Source of the DNA: Promethearchaeota archaeon
Lineage (GTDB): Archaea > Asgardarchaeota > Lokiarchaeia > Sigyniarchaeales > SOKP01
Assembly (NCBI GenBank): GCA_048940925.1
Contig: JBHLOC010000028.1
Span: 8,274-72,273, forward strand
Direction of reading: 5' to 3'
DNA length: 64,000 bases
Every line of letters begins with the position of its first letter. The stretch's first letter is position 1. Position numbers and translations under genes: made by a program. Below are positions 4,859 through 14,840 of the stretch, in pieces. Below the pieces are notes generated by a model. It made no database searches. It saw only the letters and a program-made list of their open reading frames with translations, and was not told where the DNA came from.

Positions 4859-4866
4859 AAGGTGAT
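4859..4866 (+). promoter_or_regulatory. Shine-Dalgarno-like element (AAGGTGAT) upstream of E2
   Basis: GGTGA matches the archaeal SD core and lies 6 nt before the in-frame ATT at 4872. Confidence 0.6.
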
Positions 4867-4871
4867 TAATA

Positions 4872-5381
4872 ATTAGAGAAGAGACCGATTATACTGAAAG
4901 CATTGAGAGTTATAAAGACGATCCTAGTGTCATTTTAGAGCCATGGGGTAGAAGTATAGATCATTTAAGACTTACTATCATTGGGAAGAAGGGAACTCCT
5001 TACGCAGATGGAAAGTTCGTTTTTGAAATCAAATTCCCTGAGAATTACCCGTTCGCACCTCCCTATGCTTATGCAGTTACTTTAATGTGGCATCCTAACA
5101 TTGATTCATCTATTCCCCCAGGAAAATTGAATATATGTCTAGATTTAATTAATCCAGATCTAGTAGGTAAAGTGGATGCAAGTACTGGAGCAAGCGGTTG
5201 GACACCTTCAAAAACACTAACTAATATTATTGAAGCTTTAAAAGGGATGATGCATATGGAACCTCCCTTCTTTAATCCTGGAGATCCCCTTAACCATGAA
5301 GCCGGTGAACAATATTTTCGTGCTTTAAAGAAATTTGAAGCTAAGGCTAAAAGTTGGACAGCCAAATATGCCATGGATTAA
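4872..5381 (+). CDS. Ubiquitin-conjugating enzyme E2 (probable non-canonical ATT start; ATA at 4869 also possible)
   Basis: The frame of the 5085 ORF is open back to TGA at 4863 and encodes IIGKKGTPYADGKFVFEIKFPENYPFAPP...WHPNI...NICLDL...GWTPSKTLTNII...DPLNHEAG...AKSWTAKYA, a complete UBC fold with HPN and catalytic Cys. Confidence 0.93.
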   Translation: MREETDYTESIESYKDDPSVILEPWGRSIDHLRLTIIGKKGTPYADGKFVFEIKFPENYPFAPPYAYAVTLMWHPNIDSSIPPGKLNICLDLINPDLVGKVDASTGASGWTPSKTLTNIIEALKGMMHMEPPFFNPGDPLNHEAGEQYFRALKKFEAKAKSWTAKYAMD

Positions 5382-6697: not shown

Positions 6698-8311
6698 TCA
6701 CATAAAAGTGATTATCACATTATATTTTTTAATTTCTGATTCTGCAAGTGCTTTTCCTAAAGGAGTTAATGTAATAATATCATTAGATTTTACTTTTATT
6801 GAAGTTAATTTGATATCAGGATCTTTTAGTGAGGGCATGTATGGATTCCAATATATCTCTTTAGTCATTGGATTAGTAATCATCCAAAATTCTGGATCCA
6901 AATTATATCCTGAAACCTCCATTGCGTTAAATATATAACCAATATCAGCATCAAAAGGCACTACAATTTGTACATTTTCCTCACCTTCGATCTTTCCGCA
7001 TGCTAAACAATCATCCCTTTTTATTATATTTAAATGATCAAATTGACCATAAATACCATTGTAGTTTATGTAAGGAGGATCCATGGGAGATCCAATATTT
7101 CTACCATTAACACGAAACAATAGTTTGAGTGCTTCTTGAGATTGAATACTTGCAATTACGGAACTGACAGTCTGAATCGCTGCTATTTTATTGCCAAGAA
7201 TATTTTCCATTTCTTCAAATTTGTAATCTGGACCAAATGTATTTCTTATATTATTTTTCCATTCTTTAATCTCTTCTTCAGTTAATGTCTTTCTTCTCTC
7301 TGGATTAACATTTTCATTAAAAACTCGTTCTCTTAATTGCTCTAATTCTTCTTGAGCTAATTCTTTTAATTTAAGAACGTCACTATTTAAATTAAGATCA
7401 GGTTTATGTCCATACTTTTTTTCAAAACTAACTTCAGCTTTTATAACACAATGATTTCTATTTCGAGGTAAACCTTTTAATGTGCATGCTGCAACTAATT
7501 TATCATCAGCTGGAGGAATTGGTACTAAGCATCTGTAACATGGCGTTTGATCTAAAAATTCTGGGGCGTATTTCCAGTCAAAAACCATTTCAATTTCTTT
7601 TCTAAATTTTTCTTTTAAGGGGTTAATTTTTTCTTCAATTAATTGTTCTATTTCCTCTTCGAGTTCTTCAATTCTTTTCTTAGCTTGAAAATATTCGGGA
7701 TATTCCATATCAGTAATCTCCCATAATCTCTCTTGCACTAAATTATCAATTTCTCTTTCTTTATCTTTATATTGTATACCAGAACCATCAGGAATTACAA
7801 TTTGAACATGACCCTCGAATCCGACAGTACCACCTTCAATCATCGGTTTTTTTAGTCTAAGACAGATTTTATTTAAGTCTAATCTAGCGTTAAAATTATC
7901 TAATGCTGCAATTATTACATCTGCTTCCTCATATACCGCTATAGGAAGTTTCTGAAGTTTTTCAAAATAAAAATCAACCTTTAAAAAAGGATTCATTTCT
8001 TTCAATCGTTCCGCTGCTACTTCTGCTTTAGGTCGTCCCTCATCTCCAGGTTTGAATAGCATTTGTCTAGATAAATTTGATGTTTCAATAGTATCTAAAT
8101 CAACTAAGATCAGCTTACCTATTCCCATCAGAGCGAAATCTTTTGCAATTTCACAGCCTTTCACGAAAATTATTATTTATAATATTCTTAATGCGCCTAC
8201 TCCGATGATTAAGATACATCCCTTATTTATAACATCTTGATCCCAGCCATCAATTAATTGTTGTCGGGCATACATCCGCAACTTTACTAAATCTTCTACT
8301 TTTTCTGTCAT
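6698..8311 (-). CDS. Ubiquitin-like activating enzyme E1 (UBA3/UBA2-like architecture); join(8189..8311, 6698..8158), about 527 aa after removing a 30-nt intron
   Basis: Exon 1: MTEKVEDLVKLRMYARQQLIDGWDQDVINKGCILIIGVGAL. Exon 2: GCEIAKDFALMGIGKLILVDLDTIETSNLSRQMLF..., ALDNFNAR, GTVGFEGH, PCYRC, catalytic ACTLKGLPRNRNHC, CLAC, and a C-terminal UFD-like domain. Confidence 0.9.
8159..8188 (-). other. Putative BHB-type (tRNA splicing endonuclease) intron in the E1 mRNA
   Basis: The 30-nt insert AGAATATTATAAATAATAATTTTCGTGAAA lies between the GVGAL and G codons, contains an in-frame TAA (8177-8179), and folds as bulge-helix-bulge with a 9-bp inner stem. Confidence 0.82.
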
Positions 8312-8465: not shown

Positions 8466-11400
8466 TTATTCTCTTTTTTTTTTACCTTTATCAGCTTCTT
8501 TAATCAATTTTTTGAGACTATCTATTTCTTCTCTTTCTTTATCTCGTTTTAATTTCTCTTCTTCTTTCTTTTTTTCTTTTGCCCTTTTACCTATCTCATC
8601 AATAAGTTCTTGTTTAATTTTAATTAAATCACTCATTTTTTTTCTAAATTCTTTTGCCTCGAGTTTAATTTGTTCCTTTTGTTCTTTATCTTTTGATTTT
8701 GCTTTACTTAATCCCTCCTCAATCAATTTCATAATTTTATCTGTTTCATTACTAACTTCACTAATTGCTTGTTCCATTTCAGCATCTTTAACTTCTCTTC
8801 TTCTTTTTTCTAATATCCGTTGGTTTTCTAATTGTTTTTGAATTTCATTAATTCTTGATTCCTCAGCTTTAATTCTAGTTTCCAGAATTTTAGTATTTTT
8901 TATTTCTGATTCGATATATTTAATTTCTTCTTGCCATCCAATTTCTTTAAATTTGGAAATAGCGTTATTAAACTTTTCATATGCATTTTCAAAATCATGA
9001 TATGCTACTAGTTTCTTTCCTTCATCAATGAATTTTAATCCCTCATCTCTTATTTGACCAAAATGTTTTTTCTTAACAAATAGTTCCCTATATTGTTTTT
9101 CTTGTTCACGTTTTAGTAGTTCTTGTTCTAATCTTCTCCTTCTTACCTCTTCCTGGAACTTTTCATATTCTATTTGTCTTTGTATTCGAGTTTCTTCTTC
9201 TAACTTCTTCTTTTTAAAGTAATTAACTTGTTCTTGCTGTAAATCTTTGAGTAAAGCATTTAAATTATTTATTTCTGGCTCCCATCCTATATTTTCAGCT
9301 AAAATATTTCTTGCTTGAACGTATAAAGAAATTGCATTATTAAAATCTGGAGTAAGTTGTTTCAAGTATTTTCCAGCTTCATCGAGCAAAGAATAAGCAG
9401 ATTCCCTGACACTCATCTGTTCTTGAATCATTTTTTCCCTTTGTTTTTGAGCTAATAATTGTGCTTTTTTCTTTTCTTCTTCTTGCCTTTTTCTTTCATC
9501 TATAAGAATTTTTAATGCTTTTTCTTCTTTTAATCTGTCAATTTCTTTTTGAATTTTTAATTCTTCTTGCTCTTCTCTTTGCTTTATTAATTTATTTACC
9601 TTTAGAATCATATTATTTATAGAATCTGTAGGAAACTGTAATTCATTTAGAATTAATCCCGCTTTTCTATAACTTTCAATAGCTTTCTTATATTTCGATG
9701 CTTTTAGAAATTTTTCTGCATCATCAAGTATGTTAAATGCATGTTCTTTCCTCATTTCAAGTCTAGCTTTCAATTCATTTCTTTCTTGGATCTTTATTTG
9801 CTTATTCTGTAATCTTTCTTTTTCTAATTGAAGAGAATTAGAGATATTTTGTTCAAATTCCCACACTTCTCTTTCTCTCTGTATACTTAATTGTAAATCA
9901 TTTTGTATTTGTATTAGATGTTCTTTTTTCTTCTCTTGGACTTTTTGAATAGTCTCTCTAATTGCTTCTGTAGGAAATGAAATTTCGTTTAAAATTAACT
10001 CTGCTGAATGATAATATTCAAGTGCTTTATCATATTGTGCTTGATTCATATATATCTCTGCTTCATCTAGTATCCTAAAAGCATCGTCTTTTCTTTTTTC
10101 CATGTAAGCACGATACTTATTTTGTCTTTCAAGTTCGATTTGTTTACTCTTCATTTTTAACTCATTAATTTTTATATTTTCAGCTATTTTTTGTTGAAAT
10201 TCAAATTGTTCACGGTCTTTCTGGAATTTAGATTTTAATTCCATTTGCTTTCTAGTCAAATCTTCCCTGCTTTTCATTTGAACTTTATAAATCATTTCTC
10301 TAATCAAATTAGTCGGAAAACCTATCTCACTTAAGATTAATTCTGCTTTACGATACATTTCAGTCGTTTTATCGTATTCAGCTTGTTTTAACAAATTTTC
10401 AGCATGATCCATAATTTCAAAGGCTTCTAATTTACGTGATTCCATTTTCTGTAATAGGTTCTTGCGTTCTTGAATTTTTAATTCTTTTACTTCCAATCTT
10501 TTCTTTTCTCTTAGTATACTCTCAGAGATCTTGGATTGAAATTGTTGTTGTTCTTGCTGTTGTTTAATCTTCAATTCTTTTTCTAATTCCTCCTGTCTTT
10601 CCAGATCACTTTTTCTCTTTTCAATTGTAGCTATTGTATTAGTTAATAATTTTAAATATTCACTGGTCCAACCTATTTCATTTAATATTTGAATAGCATG
10701 TTGGTAACTTACTATTGCATTATCAAAATCTTGATGTTTAAGAGATTCATACCCATTATTAATCAAATTAAAAGCCTCTTGTTGTTTCATTAAGTTTTGA
10801 GCACTTATGAGTTTTTGACTTTTTAAATTCTCTTCTTCCTCTATAGCCATTGCTCGTTCTCTATTTCTGTATAATTGTATTTGTTCCATAAATTCATAAT
10901 TCTCCTTTTCCTTATTTATAGAATCCTGTAATAATTTTGCATTTAGTGTATCATCTTCTCTCTTTCTTTGTAAAATATTCTGAATTGCATTTTCAAGAAT
11001 AGGAATTTCATCATTCCATTGAATTTGGGCAAAAATATTAGCCACATCTCGATAAATCTCAATAACATCTTCAAATTTTCCCTGTGAAAGAAAATTGTTA
11101 GCCTTATCCAATAGTTTAAATCCTTCTTCTCTTTTTTCTTCCCTAAATGCTAACTCTTCTTCCTGTTTTCTTAATATTATCTCTCTTTGTCTTAATTTTT
11201 CACTTCGGGTTTTCATATCTTCTAACACAAGTTTATGAAACAATTTATCCTCCTTTTCTCGCTCAAGACTAGCTTTTAATTCCATCTGTTTTTTAAGTTC
11301 TGTCTCACCTTTTTTATTCTTAACCTCATTAATAGCTCTTTGAATCAAATCAATTTCATCATCCCATTGAATCTCTTTAAAAACCTCAGTAGCCTTCTGA

Positions 11401-14400
11401 TATAGTATAATTGCATCATCAAAATTGCTCTGTTCAATATTCTTTTGCGCTTTTTCTAAAAGATTGAACGCGTCTTCTTTTCTTTTTTCAATAAATAATC
11501 TCTTTTCTTCCTGTTTTCTTAGTTTTTCTTCCTTCTCTCTCATTTTAAGTTGTTCTAATTTCATTTGTTCCGCTATCTTTTGCTGGATTAACTTATCTTC
11601 CTGTTCTCTTCTAAGATTTAATTCAAGTGCTTCAATTTTCTTTATATCATCATCTTTCTTTTTCTCCTGAATTTTTTGAATAGTTTCTCTAATGATATTA
11701 GTAGGAAAAGAAATTTCATTTAATAATAGTTCTGCTTTACGATAATGTTCAATCGAATTATCATATTCACCCCGCTTTAATGATTTTTCAGCTTGATCCA
11801 TAGCCTTAAAAGCTTCTACTTTATGGATTTCCATTTGCTTAACTAATTCTTCACGTTTCTGAATTTCAAATTCCTTAGCTTCTAATCTTTCTTTTTCATT
11901 TTTTATATAAGTAGAAATTTTATTTTGGAATTGCTCCTCTTCTTTTTGACGATTTAATGCCATTTCAAATTCCAATTGTTTTTCTTTTTCCTTTTTCTCC
12001 TTTCTTTCTTGAATGGTTTGAATCGTTTCTTTTAACAATTTTAAATAATCTTCTCGCCACCCTATTCCTTTTAAGATTATTATAGCATTTTTATACTTTT
12101 CTAAAGCTTCATTGAACTTTTCCTCTTTGAGATAATTATCGGTCTGTTCAAAAATTTTAAATGCTCTTTCTTGTTCAACAAGATTTAGTGCTGAAATATT
12201 TTTCTCTTTTTCAAGCTTTTTTTGCTCTTCTAAAGCTTGTACCTTTTCTCTTTCTCTTTGAACTAATATCTTGTTCATAAATACTTTATCTGCTGTTTCT
12301 TTTTCAATTGCTTGTTTTAATAATTTTTGTTTATTAAGTTCATTCTCTCTCTTTTTCTCTTTAATATCATCTATTGTAGTTTGAATAATTGGAATTTCTT
12401 CTATCCATTGTATCTGGGCAAATATATTTGCTATATCATAATAGATTTCAATAGCATCGTCAAATTTTCCAAAAGAAAGGAAATTTTGAGCTTTTTCTAA
12501 CAAATCAAATGCTTCATTCTTTTTACTTTCTTGATAAATTCTCAATTTTTCTTTTTCCATTAAAGTAAATTCTTTTTCTTTCAATTTTTCACTTTGGGCT
12601 TTCAAATCTCTAGTGATAAGTTCTTGAAACCTTTTATTCTCTTTTTCACGCTCAAAGTCGGCTTGAATTTTCAATTGTTTTTGCAATTTGGCCTCTTTTT
12701 TCTGATTTTCAATTTCTATTATAGAATTTTGAATTAAGCTTATTTCATTTTTCCAATTTGCGTCTGCAAAAAAATTGATAGCATACCGCAATATTTCAAT
12801 AGCATCATCAAAATGACCTTGTTTTAAATTTTCCTGTGATTCTTCTAATAATTTAAAACCTGCTATTCTTCTTTCTTCACGTATTTGTAATTCTTTCTCC
12901 TGTTCTCTTAACTGAATTTCTTGTCTTTTCAGTTTTTCCTTTTCTTGTTTTAAATGTTTAGTAATTTGCTTTTGAAAAGCTTCTTCCTTTTTTTCTCTTT
13001 CTAGAGCATCTTGCATCTTTTTTTGTCTTAAAATCTTTTGATCACTTTGCAATTTTTCCACTTGGTGTATAGAACTTTCAATTAAAGGAATTTCCTCAGT
13101 CCATCGTATTTCAGCAAAAATATTGCCGGCATTTTGGTATGCCTCTATAGCGTTATCATATTCTCCTCTTTTCACAAAATTTAATGCTGAATCTAAAAAC
13201 TCAAAAGCTTTTTCCCTTCTCTCTTTAAAATATTTTACTTCTACTTCTTTTTCCTTTAAAACTATCTCTCTTTTTTTTAATTGCTCACGCTCTTTATTTA
13301 ATTGAGTAGCAATTTGCTTCTGGAAATCAACTTCAGCTTGTTTACTTTTTTCCAATCGTTTTTGATCCTCATATTGCATCTTTAGTCTAGCATTTTTAAG
13401 CTTCTCAATATTTAATATTGTATTTTTAATTGTGTTGATGTAAGTTTCCCAACCTGCTCCTAAATCCTCTAAAATTACCAATGCTTTCTGATACTCATTA
13501 ATAGCTCCTTCAAAGTTTTTTTCCTTCAAAATATCATCTGCTTTATCTAAAATCTTAAAGAGATCTTTCTCTTTTTCTAGATAAACTTTCCTTTTTAATT
13601 CAAATTCTTCTCTCTTATTCTCTAATTCTTTAGCAGATTCTATCGCCTGCTTCATTTCCTTTAAATAAATAGATTCTTGAACTCTGAACAATTCTTTTTC
13701 TCGTTTTTCTTTAAGAAGTTCAGAATTTTTTTCTCTTTCTTGCTTTTCCTTGATACTACTTATTAAATTAATTACTGGTTGAATATAAGAATCCCATTCT
13801 ATAGATTTAAGGAGCTGAATTGCTTCTTCAAGTTTCTCGATTGCTTTATTATATTCTCTTTCTCTTTCAAACTTTTTTCCTATATCAATTAAATTGAAAG
13901 CTTTAATTTGTACTTGCTCTTCAATTCTTTTGCGTTCTTCAAACTCAATAAGTTTATTTCTTTGCAAGTCTGCTTCTGAATTTAATGCTTCAGAGTCTTC
14001 CTCAATTTTACTAGTTATCGGTGTTATAGCTTGTTTTTGTTGAATTTGAAATTTTTCAATCTGTTCTTTATCTCTTTTAAGTTTTTCGATAATCGTTAAG
14101 ATATTCTGAGTTTGGGCAGTCCAGCCTATGGAATTTAATAATTGGACTGCTTCTTTATAATTGTTAATTGCATTATCAAACTTTCTTTCCTTTTCAAAAA
14201 CCTTGGCTTTATCAATAAGGGAGAAAGCTTCATTTTGTACTTCCTCTTCATGTTTCTTCTGTTCTCTATATCTAGCAATCGTTTCTGCTTTCTCTGGAGC
14301 TGATTTTTCTCCAAACATTCCAACAATTTGAGGTGATTCATCCATCTGGGGTTGTGAGATTTTTTCTAATGAAATCTTTTCCTGTTGTTGTTTTAATTGA

Positions 14401-14840
14401 AATTCTTTTTGCTGCTTGATATTACTAGCTAGATTTTTTATTTTTTCTCTCAAATTTTCTAATTGTAACTCAGACCAACCAGATTGGGATAATAAATTAA
14501 TAGCAGACATATATTGTTGAATAGCTTCTTCATAATAACCGTTAGATTCTAATTCTTTTGCTCCTTCTAATATTGAAAAAGCTTGATCTTGAATATGTTC
14601 TAATTGCGCTTGAATCTGAGTTCGTTCATATAATTTTTCTTGTTTAAGAAAATTATTTAATTCTTCTATTCTTTCATATATATCTTTAATTCTATGAGTT
14701 AATACTCCACTCTGCTTTAGATATTCGGCAGCCTTTTGATAATGAGATATTGCCTTTTCTGCCTTACGCTCTTCTTCAAAACCTTGAGCTAGTTCTAAAA
14801 ATTTTAAGGCTTCCTGAGCTAATTCATCTGGATTATGCAT
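8466..14840 (-). CDS. Giant (2124 aa) all-helical repeat protein: about 18 TPR/MIT-like modules joined by charged coiled-coil segments
   Basis: Recurrent motif AFxLLxxA..G.FDxAIExY..A..I..EI.W/FP about every 110-120 aa, with E/K/Q/R-rich linkers. No TM segment or signal peptide. Confidence 0.85.
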   Translation of the reverse strand: MHNPDELAQEALKFLELAQGFEEERKAEKAISHYQKAAEYLKQSGVLTHRIKDIYERIEELNNFLKQEKLYERTQIQAQLEHIQDQAFSILEGAKELESNGYYEEAIQQYMSAINLLSQSGWSELQLENLREKIKNLASNIKQQKEFQLKQQQEKISLEKISQPQMDESPQIVGMFGEKSAPEKAETIARYREQKKHEEEVQNEAFSLIDKAKVFEKERKFDNAINNYKEAVQLLNSIGWTAQTQNILTIIEKLKRDKEQIEKFQIQQKQAITPITSKIEEDSEALNSEADLQRNKLIEFEERKRIEEQVQIKAFNLIDIGKKFEREREYNKAIEKLEEAIQLLKSIEWDSYIQPVINLISSIKEKQEREKNSELLKEKREKELFRVQESIYLKEMKQAIESAKELENKREEFELKRKVYLEKEKDLFKILDKADDILKEKNFEGAINEYQKALVILEDLGAGWETYINTIKNTILNIEKLKNARLKMQYEDQKRLEKSKQAEVDFQKQIATQLNKEREQLKKREIVLKEKEVEVKYFKERREKAFEFLDSALNFVKRGEYDNAIEAYQNAGNIFAEIRWTEEIPLIESSIHQVEKLQSDQKILRQKKMQDALEREKKEEAFQKQITKHLKQEKEKLKRQEIQLREQEKELQIREERRIAGFKLLEESQENLKQGHFDDAIEILRYAINFFADANWKNEISLIQNSIIEIENQKKEAKLQKQLKIQADFEREKENKRFQELITRDLKAQSEKLKEKEFTLMEKEKLRIYQESKKNEAFDLLEKAQNFLSFGKFDDAIEIYYDIANIFAQIQWIEEIPIIQTTIDDIKEKKRENELNKQKLLKQAIEKETADKVFMNKILVQREREKVQALEEQKKLEKEKNISALNLVEQERAFKIFEQTDNYLKEEKFNEALEKYKNAIIILKGIGWREDYLKLLKETIQTIQERKEKKEKEKQLEFEMALNRQKEEEQFQNKISTYIKNEKERLEAKEFEIQKREELVKQMEIHKVEAFKAMDQAEKSLKRGEYDNSIEHYRKAELLLNEISFPTNIIRETIQKIQEKKKDDDIKKIEALELNLRREQEDKLIQQKIAEQMKLEQLKMREKEEKLRKQEEKRLFIEKRKEDAFNLLEKAQKNIEQSNFDDAIILYQKATEVFKEIQWDDEIDLIQRAINEVKNKKGETELKKQMELKASLEREKEDKLFHKLVLEDMKTRSEKLRQREIILRKQEEELAFREEKREEGFKLLDKANNFLSQGKFEDVIEIYRDVANIFAQIQWNDEIPILENAIQNILQRKREDDTLNAKLLQDSINKEKENYEFMEQIQLYRNRERAMAIEEEENLKSQKLISAQNLMKQQEAFNLINNGYESLKHQDFDNAIVSYQHAIQILNEIGWTSEYLKLLTNTIATIEKRKSDLERQEELEKELKIKQQQEQQQFQSKISESILREKKRLEVKELKIQERKNLLQKMESRKLEAFEIMDHAENLLKQAEYDKTTEMYRKAELILSEIGFPTNLIREMIYKVQMKSREDLTRKQMELKSKFQKDREQFEFQQKIAENIKINELKMKSKQIELERQNKYRAYMEKRKDDAFRILDEAEIYMNQAQYDKALEYYHSAELILNEISFPTEAIRETIQKVQEKKKEHLIQIQNDLQLSIQREREVWEFEQNISNSLQLEKERLQNKQIKIQERNELKARLEMRKEHAFNILDDAEKFLKASKYKKAIESYRKAGLILNELQFPTDSINNMILKVNKLIKQREEQEELKIQKEIDRLKEEKALKILIDERKRQEEEKKKAQLLAQKQREKMIQEQMSVRESAYSLLDEAGKYLKQLTPDFNNAISLYVQARNILAENIGWEPEINNLNALLKDLQQEQVNYFKKKKLEEETRIQRQIEYEKFQEEVRRRRLEQELLKREQEKQYRELFVKKKHFGQIRDEGLKFIDEGKKLVAYHDFENAYEKFNNAISKFKEIGWQEEIKYIESEIKNTKILETRIKAEESRINEIQKQLENQRILEKRRREVKDAEMEQAISEVSNETDKIMKLIEEGLSKAKSKDKEQKEQIKLEAKEFRKKMSDLIKIKQELIDEIGKRAKEKKKEEEKLKRDKEREEIDSLKKLIKEADKGKKKRE

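Follow-up and report, generated by a model that had tools for sequence, protein, structure and literature searches.

How a complete E1-like enzyme could be made from a gene whose nucleotide-binding motif is split by 30 nucleotides (nt) containing a stop codon is the question raised by a locus in a 64,000-nt stretch (hereafter, the window) of contig JBHLOC010000028.1 (assembly GCA_048940925.1) from a Promethearchaeota archaeon (Lokiarchaeia; Sigyniarchaeales; SOKP01). The open reading frame (ORF) placed there by gene callers runs from a GTG at 8164 to 6698 and codes for 488 amino acids (aa), and its Pfam ThiF match (E = 2e-51) starts only at profile position 32 of 238, so the N-terminus, comprising the first strand and the glycine loop, is missing from it, as the initial annotation of the locus had pointed out. 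Judged by the comparisons described below, it is highly probable that the 30 nt at 8188–8159 are a bulge-helix-bulge (BHB) intron in the coding sequence of the E1-like mRNA, of the type spliced by EndA and RtcB. This reading is strongly supported because the site and length of the insert are conserved, its structure shows compensatory change, both flanking exons are under purifying selection, genes for EndA and RtcB are encoded in the genome, and at least nine other genes are split in a similar way.

The missing N-terminus is encoded immediately upstream. The ATG at 8311 is in the same frame as the GCEIAK segment that begins at 8158 and continues to the stop at 6698, and between the two parts lie 30 extra nt with an in-frame TAA; all of these elements were found where the initial annotation had placed them. 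Joining the two exons would yield a protein of 527 aa in which the nucleotide-binding motif, GVGALGCE, is intact, and the predicted spliced junction (...GGCGCAUUA followed directly by GGCUGUGAA...) lacks exactly 8188–8159. This is in agreement with the alignment to an uninterrupted 527-aa ortholog (P0011), in which residues 1–41 correspond to exon 1 (76% identity) and residues 42 onward to exon 2, with no residue lost or gained. The best PDB relatives of exon 2 are UBA1, UBA6, UBA7, SAE2 and UBA3 (E = 4e-29 to 1e-22). Eukaryotic E1 enzymes carry GxGxxGCE at the site of the junction, and the first residue of exon 2 aligns with the beginning of that GCE in UBA1, SAE2 and UBA3. Judged by its ThiF adenylation fold, its GxGxxG motif and its similarity to the active adenylation domains of eukaryotic E1 enzymes, the gene is a UBA-type E1-like member of the ThiF family.

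The RNA around the insert can be drawn as a BHB motif with the helices, the UAA and AAG bulges, the 9-position inner stem and the 5-nt loop that had been described for it (Table 1). In the window sequence, the outer helix consists of C-G, G-C and G.U pairs, the central helix is formed by GCAU and GUGA with one G.A mismatch, and the inner stem has nine positions, one of which is U.U. The intron itself is laid out as 1 nt of the 5′ bulge, a 9-nt arm, a 5-nt loop, a second 9-nt arm, the 4-nt strand of the central helix and 2 nt of the 3′ bulge. The frequency of such motifs was estimated by scanning the whole 4.8-Mb genome on both strands (9.7 million positions) for the same BHB geometry: only 142 positions (∼1.5e-5 in this AT-rich genome) have a 30-nt BHB with a score equal to or better than that of the E1 insert, and real introns are included in this count. 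A BHB at the E1 site by chance is unlikely, and the boundaries of the insert are set independently by protein homology. Rfam and tRNA scans of the window returned no matches.

The comparison of orthologs proposed in the initial annotation revealed the same insert in relatives. Of the 120 best protein clusters, the majority have lengths of 523–532 aa, and 14 (488, 490 or 476 aa) are truncated at the same place. On the contigs of these truncated relatives a 44-aa ORF precedes the truncated gene, and the DNA contains a 30-nt insert at the identical position. The insert is present in 7 of 80 species-representative loci, whereas ∼70 are uninterrupted and read G(V/I)GALGCE. A degenerate pattern in which the GxGAL and GCE codons could be anything from 12 to 42 nt apart recovered only 30-nt gaps, in seven genome contigs and five metagenome contigs. 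In total, 11 distinct insert-bearing sequences were obtained from five Lokiarchaeia E1 lineages in NCBI, ENA and JGI assemblies, and in all 11 the insert is 30 nt long and occupies the same site, which excludes an artefact of assembly, as these assemblies are independent. Cuts after the second base of each bulge, the rule for the archaeal endonuclease (PMC2738675) that the initial annotation had also given, would produce a junction coding for GAL/GCE in all 11 sequences, the same as in the uninterrupted orthologs.

These 11 sequences form a gap-free alignment, in which the outer helix occupies columns 12–14/52–54, the central helix 15–18/45–48, the bulges 19–21 and 49–51, and the inner stem 22–30/36–44. 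Standard pairs fill 86.4% of the BHB cells (one pair in one sequence), as compared with 24–44% when the 3′ partners are slid by 1–3 columns, and the number of cells with changes on both sides is 11, compared with 4.1 in shuffled alignments and reached by none of 500 shuffles. In the central helix, pair 17–46 links the third position of an Ala codon of exon 1 (GCA or GCG) with an intron U or C and is A-U in three sequences and G-C in eight, a compensatory exchange between exon and intron; pair 16–47 is C-G throughout, and pair 18–45 is U.G or U-A. These three pairs are kept in all or almost all of the sequences. The inner stem is 88% paired over the 11 sequences, with changes on both sides at 23–43, 25–41 and 26–40. 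In the outer helix, pair 12–54 is G.U and pair 14–52 is C-G or U.G in every sequence, and pair 13–53 is G-C in 7 of 11. RNAalifold, to which the structure was not supplied, recovered the central helix, the 3-nt 5′ bulge and the inner stem. Taken over these sequences, which are related to one another, the pattern indicates that compensatory changes have preserved the BHB structure over evolutionary time. The description that suits the motif best, from its predicted pairing, is a canonical 5′ site combined with a relaxed 3′ site (HBh′-like).

Several results weigh against this interpretation. The changes on both sides are confined to four pairs (the three in the inner stem and 17–46), and four such pairs are also reached by 243 of 500 shuffles. 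Because the aligned sequences are kin, the measures based on cells may be inflated. Central pair 15–48 is a G.A mismatch in 7 of the 11 sequences and G.U in the other 4, and the outer helix, which has 3 base pairs (bp) at most and does not covary, is disrupted in the second clade. In single-sequence folding, the BHB structure has an energy of –2.5 kcal/mol, compared with –8.9 for the minimum free energy fold, and the fold of the region is no more stable than that of shuffled sequence (z = –0.67). Since nearest-neighbor models penalize 3-nt bulges, single-sequence folding was dropped as a criterion and was not taken as evidence against an intron.

The enzymes that such an intron would require are encoded in the genome. 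There are two EndA paralogs of 198 and 200 aa, which are 28% identical and each contain N-terminal and catalytic-type C-terminal domains (Pfam), and one RtcB. The EndA genes are located at L087:1456–2049 (– strand) and L088:1210–1809 (+ strand), and the RtcB gene in L089. As read by eye, Tyr, His and Lys are retained where catalytic residues are expected in one EndA paralog, and Tyr and His are missing from the other, which would fit a catalytic alpha and a structural beta subunit. EndA of Asgard archaea has been described as an (alpha-beta)2 enzyme with the L1 loop, a broad-specificity type that cuts relaxed motifs (PMC5829648). Splicing of cbf5 pre-mRNA has likewise been linked to hetero-oligomeric EndA, which cleaves each bulge between its second and third residues (PMC2738675).

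The E1-like gene is not the only one in this genome that is split by a BHB insert. In the scan for such genes, which had also been proposed initially, a BHB was required whose splicing brings together two open frames that, without it, are interrupted; an energy-like score was combined with frame-closure filters, the junctions were read and the Pfam coordinates were checked. Two other filters were discarded: a loose ORF-fusion filter gave 37,654 matches, and a strict contiguous-stem filter missed the E1 intron itself. A length of 30 nt is over-represented among the best matches of the scan. At least nine further BHB inserts of 30–32 nt were found, the removal of which restores the genes, with Pfam coordinates that are consecutive across most junctions (Table 1). 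Several of them share the layout of the E1 intron, from the single 5′ bulge nucleotide to the final 2 nt, and its A-rich bulges. The best BHB match of the genome is the insert in the AIR-synthase-related gene, where the central helix is 4 bp long, the inner stem 9 bp and the outer helix 11 bp.

Table 1. Elements of the E1-like gene and its predicted BHB motif (positions in the window), and other BHB inserts of the same genome (our locus, L, and contig, C, handles; G000 is the genome)
Feature	Position	Strand	Description
Exon 1, E1-like gene	8189..8311	-	ATG 8311 + 40 codons (41 codons); ends in IIGVGAL, with the first five residues of the GxGxxG motif
Predicted BHB intron	8159..8188	-	30 nt, in-frame TAA; reads RIL(stop)IIIFVK in the exon frame
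Exon 2, E1-like gene	6698..8158	-	GCEIAK to stop, 486 codons; ThiF/E1 adenylation domain from profile position 32 and C-terminal parts
Outer helix h, 5′ strand GGC (exon 1)	8195..8197	-	pairs with 8157-8155
Outer helix h, 3′ strand GCU (exon 2)	8155..8157	-	from pair counts over 11 sequences
Central 4-bp helix H, 5′ strand GCAU (exon 1)	8191..8194	-	pairs with 8164-8161
Central helix H, 3′ strand GUGA (intron)	8161..8164	-	includes the GTG called as start by gene callers
5′ bulge UA/A	8188..8190	-	direct reading; predicted cut between 8189 and 8188
3′ bulge AA/G	8158..8160	-	direct reading; predicted cut between 8159 and 8158
Inner stem-loop h′	8165..8187	-	arms 8187-8179 and 8173-8165, loop 8178-8174; from pair counts and RNAalifold
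AIR-synthase-related (PurM-like)	L102:1596-1625 (G000:C30:66095-66124)	+	30 nt, phase 1; exon 2 from AIRS profile position 43; junction codon Thr
EF-2-like GTPase	L103 (C32:27924-27895)	-	30 nt; GTP_EFTU 3-35 and 49-187
aIF2-gamma	L107 (C68:45887-45858)	-	30 nt; inside the P-loop, GHVDHG-K-TT
Methylmalonyl-CoA mutase	L109 (C71:54629-54659)	+	31 nt; profile 2-54 and 58-512
Acetoacetyl-CoA synthetase, two copies	L104 (C57:77633-77604), L105 (C17:5106-5135)	-, +	30 nt; AMP-binding 6-208 and 222-309
GH38 enzyme	L106 (C43:76097-76068)	-	30 nt; THWDRE then WYLPF
Thiolase-like	L108 (C77:31189-31160)	-	30 nt; Thiolase_N in exon 1, C-terminal domain in exon 2
4Fe-4S ferredoxin	L110 (C29:33427-33396)	-	32 nt; CxxCxxCxxxC restored
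RNase HII	C40:190892	-	30 nt; GIDEAG-R-G, motif read by eye only

Reading of the junctions also led to the rejection of several candidates from the scan. One (L111) is a purS/purQ gene boundary and not an intron, and two others (L112 and L114) look like junctions between genes rather than introns. In a gene for an M20 peptidase (L113, ∼469–522; G000:C3:28068–28121, + strand), a TAA lies in frame between GHMDVVP and YGRG, and the sequence obtained by reading through it matches the family, so this is not an intron; judged from the sequence, the gene is either a pseudogene or recoded at this site, or else the TAA is a sequencing error. The two acetoacetyl-CoA synthetase genes are nearly identical and their inserts are identical. 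The assembly is rated as 8.4% contaminated, and the two copies may come from two strains that were binned together rather than being paralogs. Exon 1 of the aIF2-gamma gene (L107:1390–1749, – strand) codes for an N-terminal helix-hairpin-helix (HHH_5) ahead of the P-loop, an unusual extension for aIF2-gamma.

Other explanations of the E1 insert can be weighed against splicing. The locus might be a pseudogene, or it might give rise to two products, a 44-aa peptide and an N-terminally truncated E1, with the insert being neutral. This is how gene callers annotate it, as a 44-aa ORF followed by a protein of 488, 490 or 476 aa, but the pattern of selection makes it very improbable. Between intron-bearing lineages, at dS ∼1, dN/dS is 0.03–0.13 in exon 1 and 0.04–0.12 in exon 2, an equally strong purifying selection from which it follows that both exons have long been kept as coding sequence, in one frame and with the insert in place; the relaxed selection that the initial annotation had named as a mark of a decaying gene is not seen in either exon. 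The exact length of the insert, and a structure kept through compensatory changes, would not be expected of a neutral sequence. Furthermore, exon 2 has no conserved start codon: the GTG at 8164 is replaced by ACG in the relative L003 (ACGA), and the second clade has ACGU and an insert that ends in TAA, so the GTG is a strand of the helix and not a conserved start. Finally, a break in the middle of GxGxxG would leave neither piece with a nucleotide-binding loop.

Alternatively, the ribosome itself could deal with the insert, either by reading through the stop, which would insert ten residues, or by bypassing 30 nt as in phage T4 gene 60. The length, a multiple of three, the stop soon after the break and the hairpin give a superficial likeness to bypass elements, yet we find ribosomal handling scarcely credible, as it is the RNA pairs that are conserved and not the encoded peptide, and two in-frame stops are present in the second clade. 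Bypassing would call for take-off and landing codons that match, and these are absent (UUA versus AAA, AAG, AAU or UAA before GGC). GxGxxG would be lost as a motif if ten residues were added within it, and the similar inserts in other genes of this genome include lengths of 31 and 32 nt, which are not divisible by three. A further variant accepts cleavage of the BHB by EndA but makes splicing conditional, so that the intron would act as a regulatory gate on E1 or cleavage would mainly destroy the mRNA. The position in the ATP-binding loop, which renders an unspliced product inactive, and the relaxed 3′ side, where the weak outer helix could lower efficiency, would suit such a role. Nevertheless, we judge it improbable: similar inserts in housekeeping genes such as those for aIF2-gamma, the EF-2-like GTPase and RNase HII argue for general, constitutive removal, the E2 gene that adjoins E1 has an uninterrupted core, most E1 orthologs lack the insert, and no sensor or condition-specific element was found.

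Under the splicing model, the exon GCAU would pair with the intron GUGA in the pre-mRNA to form the central helix, with the intron hairpin on one side, the exon–exon helix on the other and a 3-nt bulge at each end. The splicing endonuclease, most likely an (alpha-beta)2 heterotetramer of the two EndA paralogs, would cut after the second base in each bulge, and RtcB would join the exons into an mRNA for the 527-aa protein with its GVGALGCE motif intact, while the intron would probably be released as a 30-nt circle. Based on gene content and structure, the E1 mRNA very probably must be cut and rejoined by tRNA-splicing enzymes. That cleavage and ligation occur, that these are the enzymes responsible and that removal is constitutive rather than regulated are three points that we infer from the sequence.

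The distribution of the insert was analyzed with an unrooted maximum-likelihood tree of 81 E1 proteins, which included 13 insert-bearing rows. These rows fall into five groups, so that at least five changes of state are needed, of which at least four are required by branches with good support. Between the two main clades, the inserts have sequence (AG..., UUAUA, AUA, CG.AA) and layout in common and are therefore homologous. The simplest reading of the tree is a single origin that was followed by repeated precise losses; the insert may also have been transferred by recombination. Since the E1 tree requires at least five gains or losses, BHB introns appear to turn over within Lokiarchaeia. At least 10 protein genes of the genome analyzed here, among them this E1 gene and those for the EF-2-like GTPase and the essential factor aIF2-gamma, carry stereotyped 30–32-nt BHB inserts (mini-introns), most of which have the same layout. 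It is likely that the enzymes of tRNA splicing serve Lokiarchaeia as a general means of splicing mRNAs, with turnover of the introns within the class.

The initial annotation went further and proposed that ubiquitin-like conjugation depends on this splicing. That claim is overstated because the genome encodes an uninterrupted 411-aa E1-like paralog that reads MAGVGGLGCEIAK. It is part of a compact Ubl-E1-E2 cluster on another contig (L121:1369–3015; G000:C30, + strand), in which it directly follows a gene for a 110-aa ubiquitin-like protein and is followed by an E2 gene (C30:43942–44418), and a third, weaker E1-like paralog adjoins another E2 gene on contig C41. As predicted from this gene content, production of the E1 paralog in the window would depend on splicing, and ubiquitin-like conjugation overall need not.

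The window also contains an E2 gene (UQ_con; 4866–5381, + strand) located ∼1.3 kb from the E1 gene. A BHB insert was looked for in its core and none was found, the core being uninterrupted. Within the 171-codon frame of this gene, no ATG, GTG or TTG precedes the Met codon at 5085, yet the UQ_con match begins upstream of it, at ∼4938. An unusual start codon, a leaderless transcript or a missed upstream exon may explain this. Directly upstream of the E1 gene lies a gene for a 2124-aa repeat protein (8466–14840, – strand) with many charged helices, for which faint TPR/MIT matches were observed in relatives. In a 93%-identical relative (L002, 24–1220), an IS605 OrfB/TnpB-like gene is found in its place.

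The closest known counterpart of the E1 insert is the BHB intron in the pre-mRNA of cbf5, a pseudouridine synthase gene, which is said to have been described in Crenarchaeota (Desulfurococcales and Sulfolobales) by Watanabe in 2002 and Yoshinari in 2006. The initial annotation had named it as the recognized archaeal precedent, which is borne out by the papers searched: cbf5 is the only gene for which BHB introns in archaeal coding sequence have been confirmed, other protein genes having only been predicted to contain them (Yokobori 2009, PMC2738675), and it was restated as the single coding-sequence example in a 2020 paper that reported a BHB intron in the 5′ untranslated region of HVO_1309 from Haloferax volcanii (PMC7714728), the one further mRNA case in these papers. 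In the papers searched on BHB motifs, the splicing endonuclease and introns in mRNA or protein-coding genes of Asgard archaea and Lokiarchaeota, including a 2026 preprint on Asgard tRNA introns, no such introns are described. Like the cbf5 intron, the E1 insert is a short element in coding sequence, within a catalytic or binding motif, with a relaxed (‘unconventional’) BHB; the cuts, predicted in the case of E1, fall after the second bulge residue, the host has a hetero-oligomeric EndA, likewise predicted in the case of E1, and the distribution among relatives is patchy, which implies gain and loss. The two differ in that the E1 insert is found in an E1-like ThiF-family gene of the Asgard/Promethearchaeota phylum, has a strictly fixed length of 30 nt and is one of at least 10 in its genome, whereas cbf5 is a single case. 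Splicing of cbf5 is supported by cDNA and in vitro data, and that of E1 is predicted from sequence.

Archaeal tRNA and rRNA introns, reportedly surveyed by Marck and Grosjean in 2003, provide a second comparison. They have in common with the E1 insert the two 3-nt bulges, the 4-bp helix, the flanking helices and the presumed enzymes, EndA and RtcB, both of which are encoded in this genome. The outer helix of the E1 motif is weaker than that of canonical tRNA introns, and as the motif is part of an mRNA, its exon half has to encode amino acids as well (Gly-Ala-Leu and Gly-Cys codons). The HVO_1309 intron is likewise a BHB in an mRNA, and it is an EndA substrate that was detected as a circular RNA and cut in vitro (PMC7714728). 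Unlike the E1 intron, it is located in an untranslated leader and does not interrupt a frame, it is 46 nt long, and its host has a homodimeric EndA. Outside archaea, RTCB-dependent ‘SOS splicing’ removes transposons from animal mRNAs (PMC12779559), and both this process and HAC1/XBP1 splicing, for which IRE1 acts together with tRNA ligase or RtcB, resemble the proposed reaction as structure-guided, spliceosome-free removal of a short mRNA segment with RtcB-type ligation. The recognition elements and endonucleases are different, with IRE1 stem-loops in one case and paired inverted repeats in the other. The likeness to HAC1/XBP1 drawn in the initial annotation therefore holds for the chemistry, an endonuclease combined with RtcB-type ligation, and not for the recognition element, as the E1 motif has 3-nt bulges and not IRE1-type loops, nor for control, as HAC1/XBP1 splicing is regulated by stress and nothing indicates regulation of E1 splicing.

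In summary, the E1 insert would join the cbf5-type class of introns in a new gene and a new phylum, as part of a set that extends over the genome. Genes of this kind are now called as truncated proteins and 44-aa orphan ORFs, which is of consequence for annotation. For gene expression in Asgard archaea, splicing would have to precede translation, and a eukaryote-like E1 would be made only after it. If this is true, the prokaryotes most closely related to eukaryotes produce, as a matter of routine, mRNAs that need to be spliced before they are translated, and it becomes a question how translation of the unspliced transcripts is avoided. The finding also bears on the debate over the emergence of protein genes with introns around the origin of eukaryotes.

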